From an uncultured Chloroflexia bacterium (GTDB taxonomy: Bacteria > Chloroflexota > Limnocylindria > Limnocylindrales > CSP1-4), in contig CAWHXD010000008.1 of NCBI GenBank assembly GCA_963833225.1, positions 96,001 through 160,000 on the forward strand: a stretch of 64,000 nt of DNA. Direction: 5' to 3'. Both the position numbers and the translations under genes were made by a program. Within the stretch, counting starts at the first letter, position 1, and every line of letters starts with the position of its first letter. Shown here piece by piece: positions 7,758 to 53,246 of the stretch. The notes under the pieces were generated by a model that saw only the letters and a program-made list of their open reading frames with translations, made no database searches and had not been told where the DNA came from.

Positions 7758-7809
7758 TCGCCTATCCGTCTGCTGCGTCGATCCGCTCCCCTCCTCCCCG
7801 TCGTCGGAG

Positions 7810-36363: not shown

Positions 36364-36522
36364 GGGCTGAGGGTGCGGCCGCGCCGCCGTCCGGTCAAAT
36401 GGTGGTACGTGCTCGCGACAGCCGCGTGTTCAGAACGCAACCGGAACCTCACCTGGGACCCTTGACGCCGTCAGCCGGGAGATGGACGATCGTTGACGGA
36501 ACGACGCCAGGGGATCGACGCC

Positions 36523-36756
36523 ATGACAGTCCAAGCGGCGAATTCAGGACGTTCCCCGGGGCCGGTGAGCCTCGAGCGACGCGCCATGGCCCTCTGGCCG
36601 CGGCTTGATCGCGCGGCGCTCCGCCGCTGCCACCAGGATCCCGGCAAGATCGCTGCGCTGATCTCGAGGCGGACCTCGCTGTCCCCCGAGACCATCAAGC
36701 AGGTCCTGCTCATGCCGGCGGTCAGCGACGAGGAGGTCTCCACCTGGTTCGGCTGA
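36523..36756 (+). CDS. Small hypothetical protein (possibly CsbD-like fold)
   Basis: ALWPRLDRAAL..KIAALISRRTSLSPETIKQVL. Confidence 0.6.
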   Translation: MTVQAANSGRSPGPVSLERRAMALWPRLDRAALRRCHQDPGKIAALISRRTSLSPETIKQVLLMPAVSDEEVSTWFG

Positions 36757-36770
36757 CCAGCTCACCGGGG

Positions 36771-38498
36771 TCAGCCCGTGCCTGACTCGAACTGGAGACG
36801 GTACAGCCGCGCGTAGAGACCGCCCGCGTCCAGCAGCTCCCCGTGACTTCCCAGCTCCACCAGCCAGCCGTCATCGAGCACCGCGATCCGCGTTGCCGCC
36901 CGGATCGTGGACAGCCGGTGGGCCACGATCACCGTGGTCCGTCCCACCTTGAGCCGGTCGAGGGCCTCCTGGACCAGGCGTTCCGACTCGTTGTCCAGCG
37001 AGCTCGTCGCCTCGTCGAGCAACAGGATGGGTGGGTCCTTGAGGATCGCGCGGGCGATCGCGATCCGCTGGCGCTGCCCGCCGGACAGCCGTGAGCCGCG
37101 ATCGCCGACCGGCGTCGCGTACCCGCCCGGCATCGCCGTGATGAACTCGTGGGCATTGGCGGCGCGAGCGGCCGCCTCGATCTCCGCGTCGCTGGCGTCG
37201 AGCCGCCCGTACCGGATGTTGTCGTGGACGGTTCCCCCGAACAGGACGGCCTCCTGGGGCACGAGGCCGATCTGCGAACGCAGGCTGGCGGCCGTGACCT
37301 CGCGGACATCGGTGCCGTCGACGCGGATCGCGCCCCGCGTCACGTCCCACAGCCGCGGGAGGAGCGACACCAGCGTCGTCTTGCCCGCGCCCGACGGGCC
37401 GACCAGCGCGAGGACCTCGCCGGCCGGGATCTCGAGGCTGACATCGCGGATGACCTCGGTCACGCCGTCGTACGCGAACGACACGTGGTCCAGGCTGACC
37501 GCACCGCGCACGCGGGGCAGCGCGACGGCTCCGGGCGCGTCGCGGATGGTGGGCTCCATGTCCAGGATCTCGAACACGCGCGCCACGGCACCGGTGCCTT
37601 CCCGGAACTGCCCGTACAGGCCCGCGATGCTGGCCAGGCTGCCGCCGATCGCCACGCCGTAGAGCAGGAACCCGGTGAGGGTTCCGATCGAGAGGCTGCC
37701 GTCGATCACGCGGTGCCCCGTGTACCACAGGAGCACGGCGATGGCGCCGAACCCCAGGAAGCCCATCATGGCCCCGAAGCCGGCCCGCCACAGCGCCAGA
37801 CGCGAGCCCTGGGCCACCACGCCGCCGAGGTTCGTCCCATACCGATCGGTCTCGAAGCCCTCACGGACGTAGCTCTTGACCACCCGGATGCCGCCCAGCG
37901 CCTCCTCGGCGGTCACCGTGCTGTGGGCGATCGCGTCCTGGACCTGCGTGGCAACCCGCTGGAGCGGACGGCCGAACACGATCGCCACGACGATCAGCGC
38001 CGGGGCGAGGAGCAGGGCCACCAGCAGCAGCGTGGGGCTGAGGGTGAACAGGATCGCGACCGAGCCCACCAGGCCGATCACCGACGACAGCAGCGAGGTC
38101 GTCGTCTGGGTCAGCATCGTGCGCACGAGGGTCACGTCACTGGACAGGCGTGAGACCAGCTCCCCCACCCGGCTGCGCGCGTGGAAGTCGAGCGACAGCG
38201 TCACCAGCCGCTCGAACAGCTCGCCGCGCAGCTGGGCGACGATCCGCTCCCCCACCACGCCCAGCAGCCAGGTCTGGACAAAGCCGCCCGCCGACTGGGC
38301 CAGGAACAGGACCACGAGCCCGCCGATCAGCCGGTCCAGGCCGGCGCCATCGCCGCCCGCCACGACCTGCGTCACGAGGCCCGCGACGACCAGCGGGACG
38401 AGGAGGCCGAGCCCGGACCCCAGCACCAGGCCCACCAGCGCGACCGAGAACGGGCGAAGGTGCGGCCGCAGGTACCGGAACAGGCGGCGCCAGGGCAC
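36771..38498 (-). CDS. ABC exporter, fused TMD-NBD (MsbA-like)
   Basis: GPSGAGKTT, LSGGQRQR, LLLDEATSSLD, VAHRLST. Confidence 0.93.
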   Translation of the reverse strand: MPWRRLFRYLRPHLRPFSVALVGLVLGSGLGLLVPLVVAGLVTQVVAGGDGAGLDRLIGGLVVLFLAQSAGGFVQTWLLGVVGERIVAQLRGELFERLVTLSLDFHARSRVGELVSRLSSDVTLVRTMLTQTTTSLLSSVIGLVGSVAILFTLSPTLLLVALLLAPALIVVAIVFGRPLQRVATQVQDAIAHSTVTAEEALGGIRVVKSYVREGFETDRYGTNLGGVVAQGSRLALWRAGFGAMMGFLGFGAIAVLLWYTGHRVIDGSLSIGTLTGFLLYGVAIGGSLASIAGLYGQFREGTGAVARVFEILDMEPTIRDAPGAVALPRVRGAVSLDHVSFAYDGVTEVIRDVSLEIPAGEVLALVGPSGAGKTTLVSLLPRLWDVTRGAIRVDGTDVREVTAASLRSQIGLVPQEAVLFGGTVHDNIRYGRLDASDAEIEAAARAANAHEFITAMPGGYATPVGDRGSRLSGGQRQRIAIARAILKDPPILLLDEATSSLDNESERLVQEALDRLKVGRTTVIVAHRLSTIRAATRIAVLDDGWLVELGSHGELLDAGGLYARLYRLQFESGTG

Positions 38499-38612
38499 GC
38501 CGCCGCCTGCCGAGCGCGCGGCGTGCCATCTCGCGCGGCGATGCGCGCGTCGACGCCGGGGGTTCCATGCCGGCGATCATGCCATGGGAGGCCGCGCGGG
38601 CCTCCCAGGCTG

Positions 38613-39545
38613 TCAGCCGCGGACCGAGGCCATGATCGCGGCGGCGCCGGCGTGGTCGGCGAACGAGGCCTGGGTGCCCGGACGCGTGACGCTGTCAGCC
38701 GCGAACGCGCACCCCAGCCGCGCGGCGTCCACCGCGTCCCATCCCTCGGCAAGCCCGACGGCGAAGGCGCCGACGAACGCGTCGCCCGCCCCCGTGGTGT
38801 CCGTCGCCGTGACCGGGCCGGCCGCCACCCGGGTGACGTCGCCCGCCGCGCGGGAGGACCGCGGCACCACGCTCGCCGAGGGTCACGAGGAACGAGACGC
38901 CGAGGCGCCCGGCGAGCGCCGTGATCAGCACGTCCTCCGCGGCCTCATCGCCGTCGAGCGTGCCCCCGCCGATGAGCGCGAACTCGTGCTCGTTGGGCAC
39001 CAGCCAGTCGGTGGCGGCGAGGAGCGCCGGGATCCAGGTCGTCGGCGGGTGCCGGGTTGAGCACGGTGGTGATCCGCCGGGCGCGCGCCGCCGCGAACGC
39101 GGCCGCGGTGACCCCCTGGGGGATCTCGAACTGGCCCACGACCACCGCGGGTGCGAGGGCCTCCACGGCCTCGACCGCGAGCGCCGCCGGAACGTGGCGG
39201 TTCGCGCCGGGGACGATGATGATCCGGTTCATCCCCGCGCCGTCCACCCAGATCGGCGCCACGCCCGATGACCCGGGAACGCGTCGCACGAACGTGGTGT
39301 CCACGCCCTGCTCCGCGAAGTTGGCCAGGGTCTCCGCCCCGTACGAGTCCTCGCCAACGGTGTTGACCATGGACACCCGGGCGCCGAAGCCGCGCGGCCG
39401 CCACGGCCTGGTTGGCGCCCTTGCCGCCAAAGCCCATCCGGAAGTCCGTGCCCACCAGCGTCTCGCCCGCCTCGGGCAGACGGTCCGCGTAGGCGATCAG
39501 GTCGATCATGGTGCTGCCGACGACGAGGATGGACGGATTCGGCAT
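38613..39545 (-). pseudogene. rbsK: Ribokinase split by about three frameshifts (possibly sequencing indels)
   Basis: [41 protein letters not shown] and DTTGAGDAF lie across frames; shifts near 39395, 39020 and 38850. Confidence 0.85.
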
Positions 39546-39701
39546 TGGTTCCCCTGTGTTGCGAAGGGATGGGGTCCGGCCCCAGAATGGTCGCGTGTCG
39601 GACGCTTCGATGCTGGCCGTTCGTGCACGTCGTCTTGATCGCGACGCCGGCCCGCGAGGAGCGTGATCGAGCTGCGGCTCGAGCCCAGGAGCCGAACCAG
39701 C

Positions 39702-40691
39702 ATGAGCCTCATCGAGCGCAGCCCAGCGCTGCAATCCGTCCTGCCCGTCATCGAAGCGTCGCGACACGTCCGCACCCATCCCGAGGAGATCGCTCGGGTG
39801 GCCGCGTGGATGGCCTACGAGGAGTTCTCGCTGCCCGGCGATATGTTCGCGTTCCCGATGGGCGACGATCCCGACCATCTCCTCGACGTGATCATGCTGT
39901 CGTCGACCCTCGACTTCGCGTTCACGGACTTCTCGACGTCGGTCAAGTTCGAGACCAGCTACCGGGGCGCCACCTGGAGCGACTCGGACGCGATGTTCGC
40001 CTGCCTCCACCGGGCCATCGAGGGCGGGATCCCGATGATGTCCGGAGCGTGGCAGGCCAGCTGCACGCGCGCCGATCTCGAGCGGATCTTCGCGGGCAAC
40101 ATCGAGATGCCCATGCTCGACGAGCGGGTGACGATCCTCAACGAGACCGGGGCGATCCTCGTCGACCGGTTCGAGGGTCGCTGGGCGGCATGGGCACGCA
40201 CCTGCGACCGGGCGCTGTACGCCGATGGCAACGGGATGCTCGAGCGCCTGGAGGCGGACTTCCCCCGGTTCCGGGACGTGTCCCGCTACGACGACGCCGA
40301 TGTCCGGATCCTCAAGCTGGCCCAGCTCGCGCTGTGGTCGCTGCACGCGACCTGGTCCACGCACGGCCTCGAGGGCTTCCCCGATCTCGACCGCATGAGC
40401 GCGTTCGCCGACTACATCGTCCCGGTGGGCTTGCGCCTGATGGGGATCACGTCCTACACGCCCGCCCTCGAGACCCGCATCAACCGCGGCGACCTCATCC
40501 CGCGCGACAGCGAGGAGGAGATCGAGATCCGGGCCCACACGCTGTATGCCACCGCGTTGCTGACCGAGGCCTGCAACGCGCTTCGCCCGGCGGACCGGCA
40601 GCTCGTGATCCCCCAGATCGACTACCGCTTCTGGAAGCCGTTCCACACGACCCACTGGCCGCATCACCTGACACGGACGGTCATGTACTAG
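39702..40691 (+). CDS. Queuosine salvage family protein (DUF2419/QNG1-like nucleotide N-glycosylase)
   Basis: [49 protein letters not shown] at the C-terminus. Confidence 0.82.
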
Positions 40692-40693
40692 GC

Positions 40694-42025
40694 ATGGCGG
40701 GTCCCCTGGGTTCGTTCCGGTTCCTGCTGGCACACCCCGGCGGCCTCGCCCAGTCGGTCTTCGGCCTGCTGGGCCGGGCGCCGGGGGCGATGCTGTCCGT
40801 GGGCTTCGTGGCCGCCGCCTCGTCCGCGGGCGGTGATGCCGGCTACGCGCTCGGCGGCCTGGCGGCCGGGAGCTACTCCCTCGCCAGCGCGGTCGCGGGT
40901 CCCACCCTCGGCCGCCTGGCCGACCTGCACGGACAGCGCCGGATCGGGGTGCCGTTCGCGCTGGTCTCCGCGACGGCCGCCCTCGCCGCGGTCGCCTCGC
41001 TGCTGACCCTGGGTGCCTCGTGGCTGCTCGTCCCCCTGGCCGCCCTGGCCGGTGGCTCCCAGCCAAACGTCGGGGCGTTTGCGCGGGTGCGCTGGGCGGC
41101 GCTCCTTCACGATCGAGACCGCGCCACCAGTGCCCAGGCCCTCGAATCGATCATCGACGAGCTCACCTTCCTGATCGGCCCGCCGGTCGTGGCCCTGCTG
41201 GCCGGGGTCTGGTTCGACGGCCTGCCGATCGCCCTGGCGGCCGCGCTGCTGCTGATGGGGATGGGCGGCATCACGTCCAGGCTGGGGTTGCCGGCGCCGG
41301 CGCCGCACCCGGTGGCCTCGGGCACCTCGCGCTGGCGGACGGAGTTCCCCGCCGGGCGCGGCCTGCTCGTCTCGGTGCTCCTGATGGGCGGCGTGCTGGG
41401 AGCCATCCAGGTCCTCCAGCTCGCCTACTGCCGGTTCATCGGCCTCGCGGAAGGCGCCGCGCTCGTGTTCTTCGTCAACTCCGGGCTCTCGCTCGTCGGC
41501 GCGCTGGTGGTCGGGTCCATCGCCTGGCGAACGCCGGGGAGGCGCCGGTTCACGATCGCGCTGGTCGTGTACGCGGTGGCGGTCCTGCCGTCTGCCGTCG
41601 TCACGGGCTACCTCCCGTTCGTGCTGGCCTCGGCGCTTGCCGGCGTCGCGATCGCCCCGACGTTCGTCCAGGTCAACGCCGTGATCGCCGAGGAGACGCC
41701 GGCCCGGGTCCGGACCGCGGCCTTCGCCCTCGTCGCGTCGGCCGCGGGGCTGGGGATCGCGCTGGGCGCGGCGCTGGCCGGCTGGGTCATCAGCCAGGCG
41801 GGTGGCGACCAGGCCCGGCTGATCCTGGTGCCCCTCGCCGCCATGACGGCCGTCGCGGGGATCGTCGCCGACGCGGTGCACCGGACGCACCGGATCGATG
41901 AGCCGCCGACGCCGCTCGAGCCCGAGCTCGAGGCGCCGATGGTGCCCGCCCCCGCTCCCCCGCCGTTCCCGCCGGGCTCGCACGGACGTGACCAGGCGCC
42001 GGGGCCCTCAGGCGATCCGCGTTAG
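40694..42025 (+). CDS. MFS transporter
   Basis: About 12 [26 protein letters not shown]; starts 2 bp after the salvage gene. Confidence 0.88.
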
Positions 42026-43251
42026 GGCGATCTCCAGGCGCTGGTACCCCCGGAACTGGAACATCGGGCTGCGGATCGCCGGCGGCAGGATCACCAGCTC
42101 ATCCTCCGACGAGGCCAGCTCGCGCAGGGTCGTCTCCATCTCCATCCGCGCCAGCGGGGCCCCGATGCAGAAGTGGATCCCGCCGCCGAACGCGAGGTGC
42201 GAGGTGTCCGCCCGCGTGACGTCGAACCGGTCCGGGTCCGGGAAGCGCCTGGGATCCCGGTTCGCGGCGCCCAGCACGAGTGCCAGGCGGGAGCCACGCG
42301 GGAGCGGCACCCCGTCGATCTCGACGCCGTCATCGAGCACCCAGCGCTCGAACCACTGGAGCGGCGGGTCGAAGCGGAGGATCTCCTCGATGGCCGCCCT
42401 GATCTCCACCTCGCCCCGGCGGATTCGCCGCCACTGGTCGGGATGCGCGGCCAGCGCGGCGACGCCGTTGGAGGTCGCGTTGACCGTGGCCTCGTGCCCG
42501 GCCATGAGCAGGACCATCGCGGTTGACACGACCTGGTCGTCGGTGAGCCGCTCCCCATCCACCGTGGCCTCGAGGAGGGCGCTCATCATGTCCTCGGCCG
42601 GGTGCCGCCGACGATGGGCCACGACATCGAGCAGGTATCGCCGGAAGTCGCCGGCCGCCCGGTTGGCGGCCGCCTGCTGCGCTTCCGATGGATGCGGCTC
42701 GTACATGGTGATCGTCGCGTCCGACAGCTCCTTGATGGTCTCCCGATCGTCGGGCGACACCCCGATCAGGTCGCAGATGATCCCCAGCGAGAAGTGCTGG
42801 GCATAGGCACCCACGAGCTCCACCGACCCGGCCTCGCGTGCGGGCGTCAGCAGTGCGTGCGGCCCGGGTAGTCGATGCCGCTGCGCAGGGCCTCCACGGC
42901 GCGCGGCGTGAACGCCTCCAGCACCAGCCGTCGCAGTCGCGTGTGGACCGGCGGCTCGAGGTTGAGCAGCTCCCACCGCTCAAACGCCTGGTAGTCCGTC
43001 CAGCGGGGGTCGCGCCAGGTCGGGATACCCGGTGGCAGGTCCAGCTCCTCGGGCGTGTAGCGGTGCAGGAACGAGGAGCCCAGCCGCTTGTCCCGGAACG
43101 CCGCGTGCACGTCCGCATGGCGGGTGAGGTAGTGGAGATGGTCGCCGGGTTGCGTGAACACCGCCCCCGGTGACTCCCTCGCGATCGCGTACGCGGGATA
43201 CGGGTCCGCGACGAACGCGGGGTCAGCGGGGTCGAGGACGAGGCCGGTCAC
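42008..43251 (-). pseudogene. Cytochrome P450 with one frameshift near 42860 (possibly sequencing indel)
   Basis: DPYPAY, EPPVHTRLR, AGHEAT, EEILRFDPP, heme motif FGGGIHFCIG. Confidence 0.88.
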
Positions 43252-44021
43252 CCGGCGTCACGCTCGATGAGCACCCGCAGCGCCGCGACGGCCGTGTCGA
43301 TCAGTGGATCGAGGGTGAACTGCTCCATCGACGCGGCGACCTCCTCGTCGGACATCGCCGGGTTGCCAACGCAGACCATGAGGCCCCCGGCCCGCACGCG
43401 CAGGACCGACGCCACGATGAAGATCGCCGCAGCTTCCATCTCGGAGCTGATCGCCCCGCCCGCGATGAACGCCTGCCACCGCTCGGCCAGCTCCGCCGCC
43501 ACGGGCATCCGCTCCGGCTCCAGCTCGCCGTAGAACGAGTCCTTTGACTGCGACACGCCTTCGCGCGCGAGCGCCCCCGTGCGGCGGGCGGCCTCGCGGA
43601 GGGCAAGGACGACATCCACGTCCGCGAGGGCGGGAAACGCCAAGGGCAGGTAGTGGGACGACGTGCCCTCGTCCCGGATGGCGGCCGTGACGATCGCCAG
43701 CTCGCCGGTTTGCATCCCGGGCTGCATTCCGCCCGACGTCCCCACCCGGATGAAGGTGTCGGCCCCGCAACGGACGAGCTCCTCGACCGCGATCGCGGCC
43801 GATGGGCAGCCAATCCCCGTGGACGTGACGGACACCGGAACGCCATCGAGCGAACCCGTCCACGTCTCGTACTCGCGGTTCCGCGCCACCAGCCGCGGCT
43901 CGTCGAAGCGGGCGGCGATCCGCTCACAGCGGCCCGGGTCGCCGGGGAGCAGCACATATCGGCCCACGTCGCCCCGGCGGAGCGCGACGTGATGCTGGAC
44001 ATCCTGGTCGAGCGCGCTCAC
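43248..44021 (-). CDS. Uridine-phosphorylase-like nucleoside phosphorylase, paralogue B
   Basis: LLPGDPGR, TGIGCPS, RVGTSG, KDSFYGEL, SEMEAA. Confidence 0.88.
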   Translation of the reverse strand: MSALDQDVQHHVALRRGDVGRYVLLPGDPGRCERIAARFDEPRLVARNREYETWTGSLDGVPVSVTSTGIGCPSAAIAVEELVRCGADTFIRVGTSGGMQPGMQTGELAIVTAAIRDEGTSSHYLPLAFPALADVDVVLALREAARRTGALAREGVSQSKDSFYGELEPERMPVAAELAERWQAFIAGGAISSEMEAAAIFIVASVLRVRAGGLMVCVGNPAMSDEEVAASMEQFTLDPLIDTAVAALRVLIERDAG

Positions 44022-44028
44022 GCCGGGC

Positions 44029-44814
44029 TCACGCCTTGGAGCCCGCCCGGTCAGCCGCGATCAGCCGTCGCAGCCCGGCGATGGCCACGTCGATCACGCG
44101 GTCCACCGAGCCGTTGGCGATGTCCTCCTCGGTTGGCGGGACATGATCAAGGTTCTGGAAGATCAGCATCACCCCGCCGGCCCGGACGCGGAGCGTGGAC
44201 GCGACGATGAACAGGGTTGCGGACTCCATCTCGGAGCAGATCGCCCCGCCGGCCATCCACGCGTCCCAACGGCGGGCCAGCTCCGCGGCGATCGGCATCC
44301 GCTCGGGCTCGTGCTGGCCGTAGAAGGAGTCCTTGGACTGGGCGACACCGAGGTGGAACGGGATCCCCGCATCCCGGGAGCCCTGTCGCAGGGCCACTGT
44401 GACGTCGACGTCGGCAACCGCGGGAAATGCCAGGGGCAGGTAGTGCGACGACGTGCCCTCATCCCGGATCGCGCCGGTGATCACGCCCACGTCCCCCGTC
44501 CGGATGTGGCGCTGCATGGCGCCCGACGTGCCGACCCGGATGAACGTGTCCGCGCCGGCCCCGACGAGCTCCTCCACGGCGATCGCCGTGGACGGGCAGC
44601 CGATGCCGGTCGAGGTGCACGCGACGGGCACGCCGTCGAGCGTCCCGGTCCAGGTCACGTACTCGCGGTTCTGGGCCACGAACGTCGGCGAGTCGAAGCG
44701 CGAGGCGATCTTCTCGACGCGCCCGGGATCCCCGGGCAGCAGGACGTAGCGGCCGACATCGCCGGGCCGGAGCCCGATGTGGTGGAAGTGGCCATCGGGC
44801 TCGGTGACGGGCAT
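44029..44814 (-). CDS. udp: Uridine phosphorylase-like enzyme, paralogue A
   Basis: LLPGDPGRV, STGIGCPS, KDSFYGQH, SEMESA. Confidence 0.88.
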   Translation of the reverse strand: MPVTEPDGHFHHIGLRPGDVGRYVLLPGDPGRVEKIASRFDSPTFVAQNREYVTWTGTLDGVPVACTSTGIGCPSTAIAVEELVGAGADTFIRVGTSGAMQRHIRTGDVGVITGAIRDEGTSSHYLPLAFPAVADVDVTVALRQGSRDAGIPFHLGVAQSKDSFYGQHEPERMPIAAELARRWDAWMAGGAICSEMESATLFIVASTLRVRAGGVMLIFQNLDHVPPTEEDIANGSVDRVIDVAIAGLRRLIAADRAGSKA

Positions 44815-44823
44815 CGGATACCT

Positions 44824-45717
44824 CTAGGAACGGGCGATCGCGACCAGCGCGATGGCGACGACGCCGATGAACATGGTCGCGGCCACGAGGAAGATCGTGA
44901 CCGTCAACCAGACCGGCAGGATGATCACGGGCGTGTTGCCCGCACTCCAGAACAGCAATCCGGCAGCGGTGCCGACGACGCCGACAACGATCCCGGCGAT
45001 GGCCACGACGAAGTCGACCCGCCCGAACGAGATCTGGCGATACGAGGTCTTCTTGCCGGTGGACCCGAACGCCCGGGACTCGAGGCTGATCGCCAGCTGC
45101 TGCACCCGTTCGAAGGCGCCCGCGAACACTGGCACGAATGACGGGATCAGGGATCCGAAGCCGGTGCTCTTCATGCCCCGGGAGCGCTGCGCCGAGAGCA
45201 CCACCTGGACCTCGCGCTGGAGCACGGGGATCAGCTGGAGGGTCATCGCCAGCATGAAGTTGAGGACATACGGCATCCGCAGCCGGGCGAAGGCCGAGAA
45301 CAGGTCTGAGGGGTGCGTGGTCATCAGCACCGCGATCGCCACGATCTCCATGGACAACACCCGCGCGACGAGCGACAGCCCGTGCGAGATTCCCTCCTGG
45401 TAGAGGGTGAACGGGCCGAGCTGGACGGCCGGCGTGCAGTTGTTGGAACAGATCGCCGGGGCGATCGCCTGGATCACCAGCATCGATGCGGTGACCGGCG
45501 CGAACACGAGCAGGACCCGGGCCACGCCCTTGAGAATCCCGGCGCTCGCCGCCATCACGAGGCCGATGATCGCGATCGCGAACAGCGGCCAGGGGTTGTA
45601 GCTGGCGAAGGCGAAGAACATGATCGCGACAAGCCAGGTGAGCTTCGCGATCGGGCTCAGGCGGTGCAGCCACGACGTCCCGCGGACGTGCGTGACCGAC
45701 ATGTTCATCGTTTGCAT
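44824..45717 (-). CDS. ecfT: ECF transporter T component
   Basis: SWLHRLSPIAKL, AQRSRG, LESRAF. Confidence 0.92.
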   Translation of the reverse strand: MQTMNMSVTHVRGTSWLHRLSPIAKLTWLVAIMFFAFASYNPWPLFAIAIIGLVMAASAGILKGVARVLLVFAPVTASMLVIQAIAPAICSNNCTPAVQLGPFTLYQEGISHGLSLVARVLSMEIVAIAVLMTTHPSDLFSAFARLRMPYVLNFMLAMTLQLIPVLQREVQVVLSAQRSRGMKSTGFGSLIPSFVPVFAGAFERVQQLAISLESRAFGSTGKKTSYRQISFGRVDFVVAIAGIVVGVVGTAAGLLFWSAGNTPVIILPVWLTVTIFLVAATMFIGVVAIALVAIARS

Positions 45718-45721
45718 GGCG

Positions 45722-46606
45722 TCATCCCTCCCCGGCCGCTGCGGATGCGCCGCCCCGGAGATCGTTGACCAGCTCCTCCACCGACAGCGCCGCCGGCCGC
45801 CCCGCCCGCGAGGGGATCCGGAGCGAGAGCTGCGTGATCTGGGGAGGGGCCAGGTGGGTCTGGTCCATCATCGCCTTGTCCGCGAACACCTCCCGCGGCG
45901 TTCCATCCGCGATCAGCTTCGCGTTCCACATGACGATCAGCCGCTCCGCGACATCCGCGAGCAGGGGCATGTCATGGGAAACGCACAGGACGGTGTCCCC
46001 GCGCTCGCCGAGGCGGCGGATGAGCTTGTTGATCACGCCCGTGGTCCGGTGATCCTGACCCGTCGTGGGCTCATCAAGGATGAACACCTTGGGTCGCATC
46101 GTGAAGATCGACGCGATGCCCACCAGCTTGCGCAGCGGGAAGCTGATCCGGTACGGGTGGAGCTGGAGGACGTCCTGGAGCTTGAAGAACTCGACGGCCT
46201 CGGTCACCCGCTCGGCGAGCTCCGCCTCGGGCACCCCGAGGTTCCGCGGCCCGAACTTGAGCTCATCCTCGACCGTCGTGGCGAACAGCTGGTGGTTGGG
46301 GTTCTGGAACACGTACCCCACGTGCGCCGCCATCTTCTGGACCGGGTTGTCGGCGGTGTTCATCCCGTTGACCACGATGGTCCCGCTGGAGGGCTTGAGC
46401 AGCCCGTTGAGCAACTTGGTGAGCGTCGTCTTGCCCGAGCCGTTCTGGCCAACGATGCCCACGACCTGCCCGGCAGGCACTGTGAGCGAGACGCCATCCA
46501 GCGCCAGGACCGCGCCGCGGCTGTAGACGTAGCTGACGTTGTCGACCATCACAATCGGCTGGCCGTCGGCGGGCGTGACACCCGGCGCGCCGCCGTTCGC
46601 GGTCAT
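45722..46606 (-). CDS. ecfA2: ECF ATPase A'
   Basis: GQNGSGKTT, VFQNPNHQLF, LDEPTTGQD; degenerate signature ISFPLRK. Confidence 0.9.
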   Translation of the reverse strand: MTANGGAPGVTPADGQPIVMVDNVSYVYSRGAVLALDGVSLTVPAGQVVGIVGQNGSGKTTLTKLLNGLLKPSSGTIVVNGMNTADNPVQKMAAHVGYVFQNPNHQLFATTVEDELKFGPRNLGVPEAELAERVTEAVEFFKLQDVLQLHPYRISFPLRKLVGIASIFTMRPKVFILDEPTTGQDHRTTGVINKLIRRLGERGDTVLCVSHDMPLLADVAERLIVMWNAKLIADGTPREVFADKAMMDQTHLAPPQITQLSLRIPSRAGRPAALSVEELVNDLRGGASAAAGEG

Positions 46607-47451
46607 GCGCGGGCCCCCAGCCACGCGACCGCGGCATCCGTGGTGACGGGGAGGTCCGTCGCCGCTGGGCCCGCCAGGGAGCGAGCCATCTCGGTGACCT
46701 GCGGCACGCGGAGCCCCAGCTCGGTGATCCGCTCGACCTGCGAGAACACCTCGGCCGGCGACCCCTGGAGCGCGATCCTTCCCTCGTCGAGGACGATGAT
46801 CCGGTCCGCGTACTGGGCGAGCACCTCCACCTCGTGCTCCGCCACGATCACGGTCAGACCCTCCTCGCGGTTGAGGCGGCGGGCGATCTCGAAGACCTCC
46901 TCCTTGCCCAGGGGATCGAGATTCGACGTCGGCTCGTCCATGAACAGCACGGTCGGGCGCATGACCAGGGTCGCGGCGATCGCGAGCCGCTGCTGCTGGC
47001 CGCCGGAGAGCCCCATCGGGCTTCGCTCGTCATAGCCGGTCAGGCCCACGAGCTCCAGCGCTGCCGCGATCCGCGGCACCATCTCGGCATAGGGCACGCC
47101 CAGGTTCTCGAGGCCCAGCGCCACCTCTTCGGCGACGGTGATCTGGCTCATCTGGAACTCGGGATTGTCGAACACCATCCCGATGATCCGGCCCATCTCG
47201 CGGACAGGCTCCACCGTCGGATCGTGCTCACCCACCTTCACCGTGCCAGTCTGCTCGCCCATCAGCATGTGCGGGATGATCCCGTTCAGGCACAGGCCAA
47301 GCGTGGTCTTGCCGGCCCCGTTGAGACCGATCAGACCGACATAGTCACCGCGCCGGATGTCCAGGTTGATGTCCGCGAGCGCAGGTCGTGTCCCTTGCGC
47401 GTAGGTGAACCCCAGCTCACGGATGGAGATGAAGGCGCCGTCGTCCGCCAC
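46603..47451 (-). CDS. ecfA1: ECF ATPase A
   Basis: GLNGAGKTT, LSGGQQQR, MDEPTSNLDP. Confidence 0.9.
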   Translation of the reverse strand: MADDGAFISIRELGFTYAQGTRPALADINLDIRRGDYVGLIGLNGAGKTTLGLCLNGIIPHMLMGEQTGTVKVGEHDPTVEPVREMGRIIGMVFDNPEFQMSQITVAEEVALGLENLGVPYAEMVPRIAAALELVGLTGYDERSPMGLSGGQQQRLAIAATLVMRPTVLFMDEPTSNLDPLGKEEVFEIARRLNREEGLTVIVAEHEVEVLAQYADRIIVLDEGRIALQGSPAEVFSQVERITELGLRVPQVTEMARSLAGPAATDLPVTTDAAVAWLGARA

Positions 47452-47542
47452 ATGGTCCTCGTGCTGTCGAGTGGAAACCCCCCGGAAACGATCGCCCCCG
47501 CCGGCCAATGGCGTGGCGGGGGCGAGATGCGAGATGCTGGCG

Positions 47543-47773
47543 TCAGTCCTTGATGACGAAGGACATGATGCCGGCGAGGATGACGAAGACGCCCATCAGC
47601 ACCATCATCCCCGCGAGCGTGGGGGCGGGTCCAAGCTCGCCCTGGGCCGCCGGGAGCGAGTCCACGACGGCGGGGAGGGCGATCAGCATGACGCCGAGGC
47701 CGACGATCCCGGACGCGAGACCCGCTCGCGGACCGACAGTCCGACCTTCGCTCTGGTTCTGGTTCTCGGTCAT
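47543..47773 (-). CDS. Small two-TM membrane protein in the ECF operon
   Basis: Two hydrophobic helices; GAGGAG-like SD upstream. Confidence 0.7.
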   Translation of the reverse strand: MTENQNQSEGRTVGPRAGLASGIVGLGVMLIALPAVVDSLPAAQGELGPAPTLAGMMVLMGVFVILAGIMSFVIKD

Positions 47774-47803
47774 GGTATTTGGTCTCCTCTCGCTCTCGTG
47801 GGC

Positions 47804-48499
47804 TCAGGCCGGCGTCGGAGCGAGGATGAGCATGTAGATCAACATGAGCGCCACGCCGATCACGACCCCGATCACAGCGGTCATCACGCCCCTCATGCCC
47901 GTTTGGGTTGGGAGCTTGATCCCCATGACCAGGTTCGATGGCAGGGCGTTGATGATCGCCAGCGCCACGTAGCCCGCGATGATCTTGTCGGCGAGCGACA
48001 CGATGATGTTGGACGCGAACACCGAGGTGATCAGGTCCTGGCCGGCCTGCGCGAAGGCGGCGGTCAGCGCATCGGACGAGTGGCCGGTGGCCCCGCCGAA
48101 CACGAAGATCACGATCGGGGCGGCGGCTGCGGTCACCGCCAGCGACACGATGATGTTGAGGATGAAGAAGGTGACGTTGTTCCGGCCCATGCCCCACGAG
48201 CGGACACCGTAGCCCCAGACGAGCGCGCCCGCCACGTTGGCCAGCGCGAACGGGATGCCGATGGGGCCGTTGATCAGCGAGCCGCCCACGTTGGTGATGA
48301 CACCGACGAGCGCGCCCCACCATGGGCCGAGCACGATGGCCGCGACGCAGGTCCCGATCATGTCCAGGAAGATCGGGAGCTTGAGCGCGGTGTTGATCGT
48401 CGAGCCGACGATGTTGAGCGCTGCCGCCGCCGGCACGAGCGCGACGACGAGTGTCAGCGGTATGCGGTTTGCTGACCTCGCGACAGATGCCGCTGTCAT
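47804..48499 (-). CDS. ECF transporter substrate-specific S component (resembles the QrtT type)
   Basis: LKLPIFLDMIGTCVAAIVLGPWWGALVG..N, FGGATG, LADK. Confidence 0.85.
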   Translation of the reverse strand: MTAASVARSANRIPLTLVVALVPAAAALNIVGSTINTALKLPIFLDMIGTCVAAIVLGPWWGALVGVITNVGGSLINGPIGIPFALANVAGALVWGYGVRSWGMGRNNVTFFILNIIVSLAVTAAAAPIVIFVFGGATGHSSDALTAAFAQAGQDLITSVFASNIIVSLADKIIAGYVALAIINALPSNLVMGIKLPTQTGMRGVMTAVIGVVIGVALMLIYMLILAPTPA

Positions 48500-48726
48500 G
48501 GTTCCCTCGAACCTCCCTCGTACCCCTGGCCTCCCGTCTCCCTTGGACGGGATGGGCCTCCTCCACGGTGTCTGCCAGGCGCTGCCGCGGGATCTATATC
48601 CCGCCGCTCCTGGCACCGCCGGATGGGCTATCCGGCTCCGGGCCCGGGTGCGACGTCGGTTCTCCCAACGGCAACTCCTGCTTGCCGTGGCGGCAACTCT
48701 AGTCCATCCATGCCACCAGTCGTCAA
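48500..48726 (-). promoter_or_regulatory. Promoter and multi-hairpin 5' leader of the ECF operon
   Basis: Minus-strand TTGACG (48726-48721), 19 bp, TAGAGT (48701-48696); five stem-loops before the ATG. Confidence 0.45.
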
Positions 48727-48814
48727 GCATTTTGCGCACACCCCCTCGGGGTCCGGGTCGGCTGGGGTAGCATCGCGGCCGTCGGCGAGCGAGATCAGGG
48801 GCATCGGAGGGCAT

Positions 48815-49531
48815 ATGGCGGCAGCACGCACCGGAATGGTCCTTGTTCCCGCCGGCCCGTTCCTGATGGGGTCGGACGAATTCGCGAGGGAGGGGCCGCC
48901 GCGTCGCGTCAACGTGCCCGCCTTCTGGATCGACCGGTTCCCGGTGACCAACGATGACTACGTCGCCTTCGTCGCCGCGACTGGCCATCGTCCGCCCGTC
49001 GACTGGGCGGACGGCCGGCCGCGCGAGGGGTTCGGACGCCACCCGGTGATGGTCACCTGGGCCGATGCCGACGCCTACGCGCGTTGGGCCGGCAAGCGGC
49101 TTCCCACCGAAGCGGAGTGGGAGAAGGCGGCCCGCGGCACGGACGGGCGCCGGTACCCGTGGGGTGACACGTGGGATGGCACCCGCGCCCTGACCTGGGA
49201 GACGGTCGCGCCCACCGGCATGCGAACGGAGCCCGTGGATGCCCGCCCGTCCGGGGCCAGCCCGTACGGCGCCGAGCAGATGGTGGGGCTCCTCGAGGAG
49301 TGGTGCGCAGACTGGTACGACGCCTATCCGGGATCGCCATACCGCTCCCTCGGCTACGGGGAGCGGTTCAAGGTCCTTCGGGGTGGGGCCTGGATCTTCA
49401 CGCAGACGCATGCCCGGTGCGCCTATCGCTGCTTCGAGCTGCCCAGTCGCCCGCCCGAGGAGATGGAGGTCCTCGGAGCCCCGACCTTTCGGTGTGTCGT
49501 GGACGTGGATGCCGCGGAGACGCCGGCATGA
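48815..49531 (+). CDS. FGE/SUMF1-fold (FGE-sulfatase domain) protein 1
   Basis: VPAGPFLMGS, HPVMVTWADA..YA.W, RLPTEAEWEKAARG, RGGAW, FRC; no signal peptide. Confidence 0.9.
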   Translation: MAAARTGMVLVPAGPFLMGSDEFAREGPPRRVNVPAFWIDRFPVTNDDYVAFVAATGHRPPVDWADGRPREGFGRHPVMVTWADADAYARWAGKRLPTEAEWEKAARGTDGRRYPWGDTWDGTRALTWETVAPTGMRTEPVDARPSGASPYGAEQMVGLLEEWCADWYDAYPGSPYRSLGYGERFKVLRGGAWIFTQTHARCAYRCFELPSRPPEEMEVLGAPTFRCVVDVDAAETPA

Positions 49532-50220
49532 TCGCATCGACCGATGGCATGGTCCTCGTGCCGGCGGGGCCGTTCCGCATGGGTTCCGACGAGTTCGACC
49601 TCGAGGGCCCCCCTCACACGGTTGACCTGCCGGCGTTCTTGATCGACCGGTACCCGGTCACCTGCGCACAGTACCTGGGCTTCGTCGCCGCCACGGGCCA
49701 CCCGGCCCCGCCGGACTGGCCAAACGGGCGGCCGGTGCCGGGTCGCGAGGACCATCCCGTGGAACGCGTGTCGTGGCACGACGCCGTCGCGTATGCCGCG
49801 TGGGCGGGCAAGCGCCTCCCCACCGAGGCTGAATGGGAGAAAGCGGCCCGTGGCACGGACGGCCGGCGCTTCCCATGGGGCAACACGTTCGCGGAGGATC
49901 ACTGCATCGTGTGGGACCATGCCATGGTCCTCGACGTCACCACCATGCCGGTCACGTCTCACCCGTCGGGTGCCAGCCCATACGGCGTGGAGCAGCTCGC
50001 CGGCAACGTCGAGGAGTGGGTCCAGGACGAGCTGCTCCCCTATCCCGGCTCAACGCATGTGTCCCCGTCCGCGGCAGGTGGCCTGCGGGTCGTCCGCGGC
50101 GGGTCGTGGTTCTACACACAGGAGCACACGCGCTGCGCGTACCGCCGCGGGCTGCTGCCCGACAGCACCGGGTGGACACAAGCGGGCGGCCCGGGGTTCC
50201 GTTGCGCGCTGACCCCCTGA
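49528..50220 (+). CDS. FGE/SUMF1-fold protein 2
   Basis: HPVERVSWHDA, RLPTEAEWEKAARG, AGNVEEW, RGGSW, GFRC; ATGA overlap with protein 1. Confidence 0.9.
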   Translation: MIASTDGMVLVPAGPFRMGSDEFDLEGPPHTVDLPAFLIDRYPVTCAQYLGFVAATGHPAPPDWPNGRPVPGREDHPVERVSWHDAVAYAAWAGKRLPTEAEWEKAARGTDGRRFPWGNTFAEDHCIVWDHAMVLDVTTMPVTSHPSGASPYGVEQLAGNVEEWVQDELLPYPGSTHVSPSAAGGLRVVRGGSWFYTQEHTRCAYRRGLLPDSTGWTQAGGPGFRCALTP

Positions 50221-50242
50221 GCCACGGGCAGTCAGGTACGGA

Positions 50243-50274
50243 GCGACCCCCCGGACCTCGTCGCGGGGGGTCGC
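50243..50274. terminator. Hairpin between convergent genes
   Basis: GCGACCCCCCG / CGGGGGGTCGC 11-bp stem; no U tract. Confidence 0.55.
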
Positions 50275-50296
50275 ATGTGGCAAGCGGCCTGAGCGC

Positions 50297-51508
50297 CTAC
50301 AGCAGGCTGACGAGCCGTGCAATGCGCTGCGCTCGGAAGCGATCGTCATCCGAGTGACGCGACTGAGCCGACACGACGACATTGCCGTGCTGGACGCGTC
50401 CCGCGATCTCGAACACCAGCGCGCCGGCGCTGTCGCTGATGACGATCTGGAACCGATCGGTTGCCCGGGGTGCGTGATGCCGATACGAGTCGCGGCCGTT
50501 ACGCGCCTGGTCCACGGCAGTCGCGGTGAATGTGTAGCCCGTGTGGCCGTTCCACTTGCCGGTGCCGGTCCACGTCGCGGTCGTTCCTGAGATCAGGAAC
50601 GTCGTGACCGAGTGGCTCCGGAACGACGAGCGCCCGGACACGAGCTTCAGCTGACCCTTGGCACCCTCGTGGTTAGCCTTGACCTCGAACTCGAACCGTG
50701 CCGAGCCGGGGTCCCCGATGACGGCTCCGGCACCTGATGCGCGACCCGCCGAGTTGGGGACGGGTGTGGGGACCGGCGACGGGACAGGCGTCGGGACCGG
50801 GGTCGGAACCGGCGTGGCCGTCGGGACAGGCGTCGGGACCGGGGTCGGAACCGGCGTGGCCGTCGGGACAGGCGTCGGGACCGGGGTCGGAACCGGCGTG
50901 GCCGTCGGCACCGGCGTCGGGACAGGGGTCGGGACCGGCGTGGCCGTCGGCACCGGCGTCGGGACAGGCGTCGGGACCGGGGTCGGGACGGGTGTTGGAA
51001 CCGGCGTCGGCACCGGGGTGGGCACCGGCGTGGGAACCGGGGTCGCGGCCGGCGGATCGATCAGCCCGGTGATCCCGGCGGGCACCGGCTGACCCGTCGT
51101 CGGGACCCCGTCGATGTCGTAGATCGTGTTGTTGTTGCCGAGCGTCCAGCCGGGCTGGGCGTTGGCGTTGATCTCGGCGAGATTCGAGAGACCTCCGGGG
51201 TCTCCATCCGAGTTCAGGCCGGCGGCAGCGTTGATGGCCGCGGCATTCGCGCCGCCCGTGCGGATCGCCTGCCCGTACGGGTTCCAGGTATCCGTCCCAC
51301 TCGGTCCATGACAGAGGAGGCAGCCGGCGTTCGTCCGTGACGCGGAGGCCGGGTAGATCCCCGACCAGGTGTTCGCGATCGAGTTGAAGGCAAACACCGT
51401 GGCCGGGATCAGCAGCAAGCCCACGAAGGCCATGATGCCCGCGGATCGTGCCCGTCGCCGGTGGCGCCCTGAACCGTTGCCCTGCGGGGGGCGATGAATG
51501 TCGTGCAT
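50297..51508 (-). CDS. Secreted monoheme cytochrome c-like protein with Pro/Thr stalk and C-terminal beta domain
   Basis: Signal peptide, CLLCH motif, WNPYG, NSDGD..NLAEI, (VPTP)n repeats. Confidence 0.75.
50758..51047. repeat. Coding tandem repeat (Pro/Thr stalk)
   Basis: Three exact 42-bp copies at 50781, 50823 and 50865, plus degenerate 12-bp units. Confidence 0.9.
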
Positions 51509-51866
51509 AGGTCTCCTCACCAGGCCTCGTCGGGCGTTCGTGCCGGTTTGGCTGTCGCCCGCCAGCGGCCGTGTGGTCGTAGGGGTGTGCAGGGAGGCTC
51601 CTGTCTACGCATCGGGGCGACGCACGTCGCAAGGGCGCCTGCTGGTGCGCCGCGCTGCCGCGTCTCGTCCCGGAGTGGCCGACCCAGGCGTGCACACGCT
51701 GAGCGCGAGCTCCGTCGTATCGGGCGGCGGAGCCGATCGTCGGCTCCACTCCTATCGGGGGAGGCGATGGTCGTGGGGTTTCGGTGACCTGGGGGCTGCA
51801 TGCCCTGATCTCAGCGGGCCGGTTGGCACCTTCCGCGCTGCCCCGCCTGCGGCCCAGCGCCGTAGA

Positions 51867-53246
51867 TCAGCCGGGTGGCACGTTCTGGACGTGGCGGAAC
51901 AGGTTGTCCGGGTCGTAACGCCGCTTGATGGCGGCCAGTCGGTCCCACGTCGAGCCCGGGTACGCGTCGCGCACCCGCTCCTGCCCCTCGTCGCCGAGGA
52001 AGTTGACGTAGGCGCCGGGCACGGGATCCAGCCCGAGAGCAACAGCGTCCAGCCACGCTTCCTGGTTCGGCCTGTCCGCGAGGTCGGTGGCGACGGACAG
52101 GATGTAGACCATCAGCCGCCGATCCCGGTGGGCATACGCCGTGGCGTCGACCGCCACCCGCGCCGCGGCACCGCCCAGGGGCCGCAGCTGGAACAGGCGC
52201 ATCGGTGATCCGGGTTCGGCCAGCCGATCAAGCGCACGCAAAGCGATGGCCGGCTCGATGGCGTCGAGGAACCCGGTCCGGCTGAGGAAGATCTGCGGCT
52301 CCCCACGAGGCTCGGGCGGATACAGCTCCGGGTAGCGCATCGGCCGGATCAGGTCAGCGATTGGTTCAGCGACGCCCCGGAGCGGGGCCAGGGCGGCGGC
52401 TGCGGCTGACGCGGCGCCCACGTAGCAGGCCCCGACCATGATCACGATCCGGCCGTGTACGTCGGGCGGCACGAACGGCATCGGCGGGCAGCGCATGACG
52501 TTGATGATCCCCGAGAGCTCGTCCGGCGCCTCGTCCATGACCCCCACGACCGCGGCAACGGTCGCCGGCGTTGCCGGCAGGACCATGAGACCGCCCGTAA
52601 CCTCGTCGACAGCGTGGAGGCGGTACCGGAACCGGGTCGCAACCCCGAAGTTGCCGCCGCCGCCGCGCACTGCCCAGAACAGGTCCGGCTCATGCTCGGC
52701 ATCCACGACGTGGACCGCACCGTCGGCGGTCACCAGCTCGGCGGCGAGCAGGTTGTCGATGGTCAGGCCCTGCTTGCGCACCAGGTACCCGACGCCACCA
52801 CCGAGCGTGATCCCCGCGATCCCCACGGATCCCGTGTCGCCGAACCCTGTGGCCAGCCCGTGCTCGGCGGCAGCCTCCGTATACGCGCGAGCGGTCAGGC
52901 CGGCGCCCGCCCATGCCAGCCGGCCCTCGACGTCGATCTCCAGGCTCGTCAGATCCCGCGTGTCGACGACGATCCCACCCTCGATGACCGAGTGGCCGGC
53001 GCCGCTGTGGCCGCCACCCCGGACCGTGAGCCCGAGGCCCGCTTCGCGGGCCAGGGAGACGACTTCGCGAACGTCATCGGTGCCGGCGACACGGACGATC
53101 ACGGCCGGGCATCGATCGACGCCGCCGAGCATCACGACGCGGGCAGCGTCGTAGCCATCATCGCCCGGAGCGAGGACAGCGCCGGACACGCGCTGCCGAA
53201 GGGCAGCGATGTCGAGCGGGCCGGGATGCGTGGGCGTGGACGCCAT
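51867..53246 (-). CDS. FAD-binding oxidoreductase (BBE/VAO family)
   Basis: RGGGHS, VGIAGITLGGG, LFWAVRGGGGNFG, YVNF, KRRYDPDNLF. Confidence 0.93.
   Translation of the reverse strand: MASTPTHPGPLDIAALRQRVSGAVLAPGDDGYDAARVVMLGGVDRCPAVIVRVAGTDDVREVVSLAREAGLGLTVRGGGHSGAGHSVIEGGIVVDTRDLTSLEIDVEGRLAWAGAGLTARAYTEAAAEHGLATGFGDTGSVGIAGITLGGGVGYLVRKQGLTIDNLLAAELVTADGAVHVVDAEHEPDLFWAVRGGGGNFGVATRFRYRLHAVDEVTGGLMVLPATPATVAAVVGVMDEAPDELSGIINVMRCPPMPFVPPDVHGRIVIMVGACYVGAASAAAAALAPLRGVAEPIADLIRPMRYPELYPPEPRGEPQIFLSRTGFLDAIEPAIALRALDRLAEPGSPMRLFQLRPLGGAAARVAVDATAYAHRDRRLMVYILSVATDLADRPNQEAWLDAVALGLDPVPGAYVNFLGDEGQERVRDAYPGSTWDRLAAIKRRYDPDNLFRHVQNVPPG

Follow-up and report, generated by a model that had tools for sequence, protein, structure and literature searches.

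The stretch analysed here (hereafter the window) is a segment of 64,000 nucleotides with 71% G+C from an uncultured Chloroflexia bacterium (Limnocylindria, Limnocylindrales; GenBank assembly GCA_963833225.1, contig CAWHXD010000008.1, positions 96,001 to 160,000), and its positions 38613-50220 carry a group of about 13 genes that we discuss as a putative nucleoside-scavenging island. A sequence-only reading had described there a minus-strand operon with an energy-coupling factor (ECF) transporter, two nucleoside phosphorylases and a cytochrome P450, converging on a DUF2419 hydrolase gene paired with a transporter gene of the major facilitator superfamily (MFS), plus a divergent ribokinase and two divergent genes of the formylglycine-generating enzyme (FGE) fold, and had interpreted the whole as a candidate pathway for a queuosine-like modified nucleoside. 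Genes were called by third-position G+C (GC3) and checked against Pfam and NCBIfam, and this confirmed the entire set in the order and on the strands described, with the frames of the ribokinase and the P450 broken. The genes are the following:

38613-39545, minus strand: ribokinase (PfkB family), divergent from the DUF2419 gene, read here in four frame segments.
39702-40691, plus strand: DUF2419/Q_salvage (Qng1-like) N-glycosidase of a divergent subfamily; PF10343, 173.4 bits against a cut-off of 25.
40694-42025, plus strand: MFS transporter (MFS28), paired with DUF2419; PF07690, 73.3 bits.
42008-43251, minus strand: cytochrome P450, CYP107P2-like, with the frame broken near 42861-42869; PF00067, 96.4 bits on the 3' open reading frame (ORF).
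43248-44021, minus strand: UP2, NP-I phosphorylase of the E-type (KDSFYGEL); PF01048, 130.2 bits.
44029-44814, minus strand: UP1, uridine phosphorylase of the S. pyogenes type (KDSFYGQH); TIGR01718, 296.9 bits against 280.3.
44824-45717, minus strand: ECF T component; PF02361 (CbiQ), 105.4 bits.
45722-46624, minus strand: ECF ATPase A'; PF00005, 101.9 bits; best NCBIfam model TIGR04521 (ECF_ATPase_2), 237.5 bits, under its cut-off.
46603-47508 (ORF limits), minus strand: ECF ATPase A; PF00005, 94.2 bits; best NCBIfam model TIGR04520 (ECF_ATPase_1), 255.3 bits, under its cut-off.
47543-47773, minus strand: small membrane protein of 76 aa between S and A, with a gene-like GC3 pattern.
47804-48499, minus strand: ECF S component of an unnamed family.
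48815-49531, plus strand: FGE-sulfatase-fold protein 1, divergent from ECF S; PF03781, 176.6 bits.
49528-50220, plus strand: FGE-sulfatase-fold protein 2, a paralog of protein 1, whose start overlaps the stop of protein 1.

The minus-strand operon runs from ECF S through the 76-aa protein, A, A', T, UP1 and UP2 to the P450, and it is on this P450 end that the DUF2419-MFS pair converges. With S, T and two ATPase genes in a single operon, the transporter is of the dedicated (group I) type. Homologs of A align from about residue 15-27, and its actual start may lie further in. The start of DUF2419 was set at the ATG at 39702 on the basis that most relatives are 329-337 aa long, and the ATG of the MFS gene lies 2 nt past the DUF2419 stop. 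For the 76-aa protein only a weak match to DUF5518 was obtained (21 bits against 27). Since the island is flanked by an ABC exporter, a GH18 protein and a BBE-type oxidase, the limits first assigned to it are reasonable. The same flanks bear on the alternative that the island makes or exports a nucleoside analogue. The P450, the FGE-fold proteins and an MFS transporter of an often-efflux type (weak matches to drug-efflux MFS families) would suit such a role, but neither the flanks nor the island hold scaffold-building or other biosynthetic genes that support it, the enzymes present all belong to degradative or salvage types, ECF systems are importers and the island is kept in genomes of 1.0-1.4 Mb, so that we regard this alternative as extremely improbable.

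To place the island among its relatives, the source genome (3.89 Mb, 86% complete) was examined together with 24 congeneric genomes and 16 from a sister family whose genomes measure 1.0-1.4 Mb, which makes 41 genomes in all. The genes were found together in other genomes as well, in their whole order in one of the same genus (G013), rearranged in the sister family, and in wider loci around the S gene described below. G013 is collinear with the window over 35125-50211, with a nucleotide identity of about 85%. Of six loci of 20 kb surrounding DUF2419 genes that were inspected, L028-L032 belong to the sister family and L033 to the source genus. L028 and L031 presented P450, UP2, T, A', A, the small protein and S and, divergently, DUF2419 and MFS with UP1 and ribokinase next in line; L029 displayed ribokinase-UP1, DUF2419 and UP2-P450; L030 and L032 displayed DUF2419, ribokinase and UP1; and L033 carried DUF2419 alone. 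In L028, a nucleoside hydrolase gene (PF01156, 248.6 bits) came after ribokinase-UP1. Because the arrangement is conserved in G013 and, rearranged, in sister-family genomes, it is not due to chance.

DUF2419 was present in 22 of the 41 genomes (5/24 of the genus and 16/16 of the sister family) and the S gene in 24 (16/24 and 7/16, respectively). Twelve genomes had both, at a distance of at most 10 kb in nine, 357 kb apart in one (G024) and on different short contigs in the other two. DUF2419 and S are therefore physically linked where both exist, though uncorrelated genome by genome. The lack of correlation is what would be expected if a nucleoside operon merely stood beside a functionally unlinked queuine-salvage pair, and the source genome does carry a paralogous DUF2419 in another context; however, the adjacency in nine of twelve genomes, and its persistence in several arrangements across two families, make such a juxtaposition very unlikely in our judgement.

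The S component had been taken for one of the QrtT type. By score it belongs to no QrtT or QueT family: it reaches the cut-off of no named S family (PF12822, 23.7 bits against 30.7; NF045596, "CD3073 family", 114.1 against 180), no match to QueT (PF06177) was found for it, and its nearest protein-atlas clusters are labelled "ECF transporter S component" and have no common Pfam family. One homolog, in locus L101, reached 30.9 bits with PF12822. The designation therefore applies no further than the general ECF S fold. When species-representative genomes were scanned with an alignment of S, 200 relatives were confirmed, and the counts of loci given here and below refer to the best 80 of these 200, in which island genes were scored by tblastn with the island proteins (matches over at least half of the query; UP-like genes at 50% identity or more). 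These 80 loci come from three phyla, namely from metagenome-assembled genomes (MAGs) of Limnocylindria-like, Anaerolineae and Thermomicrobiales bacteria, from Microbacteriaceae and other Actinomycetota, and from Rhizobiaceae and other Proteobacteria. The T gene was present in 78 of them, at least one UP-like gene in 58 and at least two in 52, a ribokinase-like gene in 36, a nucleoside hydrolase in 23, a P450 in 15 and DUF2419 in seven. MFS transporters similar to that of the window were confined to eight loci, all of the Limnocylindria type, and no similarity was detectable between the window MFS and those that follow the phosphorylases in other phyla. The 76-aa membrane protein had identically placed homologs in 24 loci, all of them within L034-L077, and homologs also occur in the sister-family loci.

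De novo clustering of the 1207 ORFs called in these loci disclosed as conserved neighbours a GntR/UTRA regulator, a second MFS unrelated to that of the window, IU_nuc_hydro, an aldehyde dehydrogenase and a SorC-type regulator; the neighbouring deoC is genuine (TIGR00126, 164.8 bits against 117.3). All of these are usual companions of nucleoside or deoxyribose catabolism. In addition, among five module-carrying genomes checked for tgt, the tRNA-guanine transglycosylase gene, none was found in two Actinomycetota (G041 and G042), while the other three had it. Given that G041 and G042 carry the module but yielded no tgt, the ECF-phosphorylase core can hardly be a queuosine device in general, and the queuosine-like specificity first attributed to the transporter and the phosphorylases is not sustained by its distribution, its catabolic neighbourhoods or the uridine-type residues of UP1 described below. 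Literature searches on CD3073, on queuosine with nucleoside phosphorylase and ECF, and on ECF transporter with uridine phosphorylase found nothing relevant.

Other observations on these loci are recorded here. In L037 (7025-8890, plus strand), an ORF of 621 aa with PfkB kinase and PNP_UDP_1 domains lies just upstream of ECF S and is followed by a distant PNP_UDP_1 gene; this could reflect a genuine fusion, or ORF calling may have joined two genes. In Anaerolineae, one or two URO-D/MtaA-CmuA-like methyltransferase-family genes stand beside the ECF-UP-UP-MFS operon (L052, 16567-18911; similar in L058, L067, L074, L081 and L096), and such genes were seen in 16 of the 71 loci with a called S gene, mostly on the opposite strand. 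A link to NAD or pyridine ribosides, considered on account of nadE-like genes upstream of S, was discarded, as these are CN_hydrolase and NAD_synthase genes beside an RsmI-like methylase, that is, housekeeping synteny.

Both phosphorylases have the S. pyogenes uridine phosphorylase (3qpb) as their best solved relative (266.8 bits for UP1 and 258.9 bits for UP2). In UP1, the residues Lys162, Gln168 and His169, which we take to be the uracil ligands of that enzyme, aligned identically, while UP2, with 272 bits under the TIGR01718 cut-off of 280.3, has Glu in place of Gln168 and Leu in place of His169. The same two types were found across the 80 loci, where 96 UP-family ORFs comprised 57 with the motif GQH, 32 with GE[V/I/L/T], four with GQ[M/V] and three with no motif, and in most loci the Q-type gene was directly followed by the E-type gene. 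When 95 sequences were aligned, no column other than the Gln/Glu one separated the two types. These residues point to a second base specificity for the E-type phosphorylase. We do not claim a single ancient duplication for it, since FastTree analysis of the 95 sequences resolved the E-type members into four pure clades of 18, 12, 2 and 1 leaves.

For the ribokinase, we relied on the intact G013 ortholog, which scored 286.2 bits with TIGR02152 (cut-off 299.65) and had ribokinases as its best solved relatives (189.9 bits); among the matches listed at E<=1e-30, all 12 solved relatives were ribokinases. The PfkB protein was also considered as the missing queuosine kinase, an enzyme still called "unidentified" in the portions available to us of PMC9881137 and PMC12207525; our literature search on queuosine kinase gave no match. 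That candidacy was rejected on the near-equivalog ribokinase score and the identity of those 12 relatives, and also because the gene occurs with the ECF module where DUF2419 is missing and adjoins nucleoside hydrolases.

The protein encoded from 39702, identified earlier as a DUF2419 hydrolase, passes the Q_salvage model with the score listed above. It matched the S. thermophilus Qng1 structures (7uk3/7u07) with about 151 bits and was aligned with them and, in a clade alignment of 18 sequences, with the source-genome paralog and 16 database relatives. The catalytic Asp231 of the helix-hairpin-helix (HhH) and Lys199, the ribose-stacking F75 and Y232 and the C-terminal Tyr are identical to those of Qng1 and invariant in the 18 sequences; the deazaguanine-binding D298 and W302 are kept, with an aliphatic residue (L) at 203. 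The pocket for the cyclopentenediol, described in the part of PMC9881137 consulted as an aromatic one formed by W48, Y93, W94 and W299, is altered: Y93S is invariant in the clade, W94D is Asp, Glu or other, and W299Y is Tyr or Phe, and in a less certain part of the alignment W48 is replaced by Asp and H53 by Pro. The 5'-phosphate ligands are also changed, R80 to Lys, K233 to Ile and Q306 to His, the latter two invariantly. A database search returned 2999 proteins at E<=1e-10, the best 120 of which were 58-89% identical. On these comparisons, the window DUF2419 appears to be a member of a large Qng1 subfamily with a different substrate pocket, and it may act on a nucleoside rather than on a 5'-nucleotide, which would fit the loss of the phosphate ligand K233. 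Hydrolysis of a nucleoside would yield free ribose and thereby give a role to the divergent ribokinase, so that the idea of freeing the base and recycling the ribose agrees with this gene pair.

The source-genome paralog (G000:C8:542291-543334) has the same residue pattern and is 59% identical to the window copy; 17 nt on, there is a gene for a 140-aa protein of the nucleoside 2-deoxyribosyltransferase family (PF05014, 93.9 bits; both genes span G000:C8:542291-543773, or L026 10291-11773), and the two may form another glycosidase pair acting on nucleosides or nucleotides. In two other Chloroflexota loci (L034, 607-1722; L038, 7503-8762), the gene immediately upstream of DUF2419, in the same orientation, encodes a LacI-family regulator.

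The altered pocket raises the alternative that the island serves another riboside or modified nucleoside, such as an alkylated breakdown product of tRNA or rRNA or a 7-deazaguanine nucleoside other than queuosine, with DUF2419 as the glycosidase and the P450 as an oxidative dealkylase. The 7-substituent pocket is systematically different and more polar than in StQng1, a phosphate ligand is lost in all 18 members and the clade is large; moreover, the URO-D/MtaA-like genes of Anaerolineae stand where Limnocylindria have the P450, and CYP107P3, a relative of the P450 discussed below, O-dealkylates 7-ethoxycoumarin according to the sections seen of PMC11214959. Against this, D298, W302 and the catalytic residues are kept, the organisms clearly need queuine and the island has no other enzyme known to supply it, no result points to a dealkylation substrate or product, and the URO-D association is limited to 16/71 loci and mostly to the opposite strand. 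We consider this alternative unlikely.

The need for queuine is apparent from the rest of the genome. The sequence-only reading had noted that tgt was not visible, and this is true of the window; the gene is nonetheless present on the same contig (G000:C8:61518-62564), 33.4 kb ahead of the window start and between ruvB and recA. Its product reads GGLAGD where E. coli-type enzymes read GGLAVGE, and GG[LS][AS]G is given, in the sections seen of PMC11570991, as the mark of transglycosylases that insert queuine directly. Of the que genes proposed for checking, queA, queC, queH and QPTR/YhhQ were not found in the source genome (86% complete), and across the 41 genomes tgt was found in 40 and queA in none. 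With a tgt of the queuine-type GGLAG pocket and none of these que genes found, the organism is by its gene content dependent on queuine salvage. The DUF2419-MFS pair fits such salvage given a queuine-type tgt in the genome and no queA found in its relatives. An entire order of free-living Chloroflexota seems to be tgt-only and to use a large Qng1 subfamily with divergent residues, and queuine salvage outside host-associated bacteria is poorly mapped.

With this dependence in mind, we weighed the possibility that the island is a dedicated queuosine pathway, in which the ECF system would import queuosine or a similar nucleoside, DUF2419 and/or the E-type phosphorylase would free the base, the ribokinase would recycle the ribose and the P450 and FGE-fold proteins would remodel the base. 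Queuine has to be salvaged in this lineage, scarce micronutrients are the typical cargo of ECF systems, DUF2419 divergently adjoins S in the streamlined sister-family loci L028 and L031, the P450 is retained in a genome of 1.2 Mb, and the Glu of UP2 could conceivably pair with the N1-H/2-NH2 edge of a (deaza)guanine. Nevertheless, the ECF-UP1-UP2 module occurs in G041 and G042 and in ordinary nucleoside and deoxyribose catabolic contexts, only seven of the 80 S loci contain DUF2419, the sister family has S in 7/16 but DUF2419 in 16/16 genomes, UP1 has uridine-type residues, the S component fails the QrtT and QueT family scores, and no preQ1 or other riboswitch was found in seven loci or in window positions 34000-54000. 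A dedicated queuosine pathway thus seems doubtful to us. No Rfam family reached its gathering score in the seven loci, and the window interval gave only three sub-threshold, chance-like matches. No shared operator was found either, as the two divergent promoter regions have a single 9-mer in common. A perfect palindrome, GCGGGAT CTAT ATCCCGC (7-nt arms and a 4-nt centre), is present between ECF S and FGE gene 1 at 48587-48604 and may be an operator.

The P450 has the heme loop FGGGIHFCIG, and its best solved relative is CYP107P2 of S. avermitilis (8yhn, 326.1 bits; the next, 218.7). In the parts seen of PMC11214959, the role of CYP107P2 is described as poorly understood and the enzyme, itself an orphan, as binding monoterpenes in vitro. 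In Limnocylindria-type loci the P450 gene was always directly after T or UP2, and it is kept in a sister-family genome of 1.2 Mb; retention of a P450 within a salvage island of so small a genome is unusual. Homologs at E<=1e-60 were found in 56 of 151 Actinomycetes genomes (a tally that includes G068). Examination of 24 of the 25 loci returned (L135 was left out) showed in none of the 24 a ribokinase, UP, ECF S or T, nucleoside hydrolase or DUF2419 gene within about 1.5 kb of the P450 homolog; a weak match to an ABC ATPase (34% identity) was seen near the P450 of L123. The absence of island genes from these 24 loci indicates that the P450-island association is specific to the present lineage. 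As to the FGE-fold proteins, no signal peptide was evident in their translations. Protein 1 is equally distant from ToxD (7spq, 93.9 bits) and from FGEs (about 91 bits), and protein 2 matched the EgtB C-terminal domain with 120.9 bits, far under the cut-off of 360. An FGE-like gene was found beside ECF S in 17/80 loci and, in Anaerolineae, directly upstream of S on the same strand. The P450 and the two FGE-fold genes are conserved lineage-specific additions; nothing in our results shows action of their products on a base, the function at first ascribed to them.

A frame walk of the window placed the ribokinase in four frame segments and the P450 in two. Compared with G013, where the orthologs are intact (309 and 413 aa, respectively), single extra bases were found at 38844, 39028 and 39393 in the ribokinase and at 42861 and 42869 in the P450, and these five insertions were the sole frame-breaking differences within island genes. 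Contigs from the independent runs X1, X2 and X3 (90-99% alike) omitted one base at 38837, 39025, 39391, 42860 and 42869, the ribokinase bases being omitted in the set of all three runs and the P450 bases in the X1 contig, and displayed no further indel over 38600-43300; in run X6, with few bins covered, none of the five sites was seen. Isolated frame-breaking indels relative to G013 also occur outside the island, for instance at 8377, 9103, 18709, 25988, 54830 and 58709. Furthermore, a nucleoside-hydrolase gene of the source genome (G000:C8:780655-781550) and the tgt of another genome (G017:C7:54737-55772) are each split into two overlapping frames, which suggests that frame errors are common in these assemblies. 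Because the extra bases are absent from G013 and from the X1, X2 and X3 contigs, and because similar indels and split genes occur elsewhere, the five insertions are probably consensus or assembly errors. The opposite view has in its favour that they are confined to two of about 13 genes, as would also fit a recent joint decay of ribokinase and P450. Two stretches outside the island are worth recording. Positions 7809-9538 gave no confident gene call and have single-base indels against G013 at 8377, 8450, 8598, 9103, 9196 and 9406, so that they may hold a decayed gene or be poorly polished. A minus-strand ORF of 407 aa at 50297-51520, with a long Pro-Thr/Val repeat, a CLLCH (CxxCH-like) motif near its N-terminus and no Pfam match, lies in a stretch (about 50212 to 51864) that is missing from the otherwise collinear G013.

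Taking the evidence as a whole, we favour, with moderate confidence, a composite nucleoside-scavenging island made up of an ECF importer, a phosphorylase pair, a queuine-salvage hydrolase with its MFS partner, a ribokinase and a P450. To the importer and the phosphorylases, Limnocylindria-like bacteria would have added the divergent Qng1 subfamily, the dedicated MFS and the CYP107P2-like P450. In this proposal, the dedicated ECF importer (the S component of an unnamed family, the small membrane protein, A, A' and T) would take up ribonucleosides, as its genomic context suggests. UP1 would phosphorolyse uridine, and UP2, its constant partner, in which the base-contacting Gln-His is replaced by Glu-aliphatic, would handle a second base. 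DUF2419, a Qng1 family member, would release queuine from imported or recycled queuosine, and the translationally coupled MFS would move queuine or queuosine. The divergent gene, of the ribokinase family, would convert the freed ribose to ribose 5-phosphate, and the tgt product, with its queuine-type motif, would be expected to insert queuine directly into tRNA. As a guess, the P450 and the FGE-fold proteins, the latter taken to be cytoplasmic, might trim alkylated nucleosides or bases oxidatively. The earlier interpretation is therefore partly supported.

Several points weigh against this proposal. It is built on sequence and context, and the transport and enzyme activities of all its members are predicted. 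A nucleoside as the ECF substrate is suggested by the neighbourhood only, and to our knowledge characterised ECF transporters carry micronutrients and not bulk nucleosides. DUF2419 and S are uncorrelated at the genome level, with DUF2419 in 12 of 24 S-positive and 10 of 17 S-negative genomes. The changes Y93S, W94D/E and W299Y/F in the DUF2419 clade mean that its substrate might not be queuosine. Twenty-two of the 80 S loci had no UP-like gene, many of them being ECF-P450-ribokinase or ECF-ribokinase operons of Limnocylindria-like MAGs and a few of them cut contigs, so that phosphorolysis is not obligatory. Finally, neither the riboswitch searches nor the comparison of the two divergent promoters gave an element linking the units.

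A bolder version can be envisaged, in which Limnocylindria-type bacteria would run an undescribed aerobic route recycling hypermodified tRNA nucleosides. Its parts, which we put forward only jointly and as a speculation with a small chance of being right, are that an ECF system of a new family would import queuosine and other modified nucleosides as micronutrients; that the Qng1 subfamily without a phosphate clamp would hydrolyse the nucleoside to queuine and ribose, bypassing queuosine kinase, with capture of the ribose by the ribokinase; and that the E-type phosphorylase and the P450 would open a branch, such as oxidative dealkylation, for bases or nucleosides refractory to ordinary salvage. 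Irrespective of this speculation, the island provides testable candidates for the missing queuosine or queuine transporters of environmental bacteria. If its ECF system does import nucleosides, ECF transporters would extend beyond vitamins and metals, in a module that spans three phyla, and the E-type phosphorylase would represent a new specificity in the NP-I family.

The island shares with classical nucleoside operons as we know them (udp/deoD-deoC, rihA-rbsK) the combination of uridine phosphorylase, nucleoside hydrolase, ribokinase, deoC and GntR- or SorC-type regulators with a nucleoside importer. It differs from them in that its importer is an ECF system where they have NupC/NupG or an ABC system with a binding protein, and in the fixed pairing of a Q-type with an E-type phosphorylase. 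We found no description of an ECF importer with such a pair, although the supplementary tables of PMC11130926 may list the neighbourhood and those of PMC9881137 the residue variants. The gene-neighbourhood networks of PMC11130926, in the portions seen, gave Qng1-adjacent MFS and ABC transporters as candidates; its main text, to the same extent, is without phosphorylases, P450 or the S family of the window, and its supplementary tables may list the island. CYP107P2 (8yhn; PMC11214959, seen in part) is the closest solved P450, but in the flank comparison its nearest Actinomycetes homologs (37-47% identity) were devoid of island genes within 1.5 kb. As in the C. difficile system (ECF-QueT/QrtT, QueK and QueL, as presented in the parts seen of PMC11570991 and PMC11130926), an ECF importer adjoins a queuine-freeing glycosidase in a queuosine-salvaging organism. 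In contrast to that system, we found here neither QueL nor queA, which leaves direct insertion of queuine as the required route, the glycosidase belongs to the HhH and not to the IU-nucleoside hydrolase type, no preQ1 riboswitch was found, and the S component is under the PF12822 cut-off and has no QueT match. The salvage by Qng1 of S. thermophilus and eukaryotes (PMC9881137) is, in the sections seen, without the ECF/phosphorylase/ribokinase/P450 context, and the enzyme studied there lacks the Ile233, His306 and Y93S/W94D/W299Y changes of the present one, but both belong to the same Pfam family, share the catalytic and deazaguanine-binding residues and operate in tgt-positive hosts without de novo queuosine genes. 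Set beside these systems, the island is a variation on established salvage systems and not a pathway that is new in kind.

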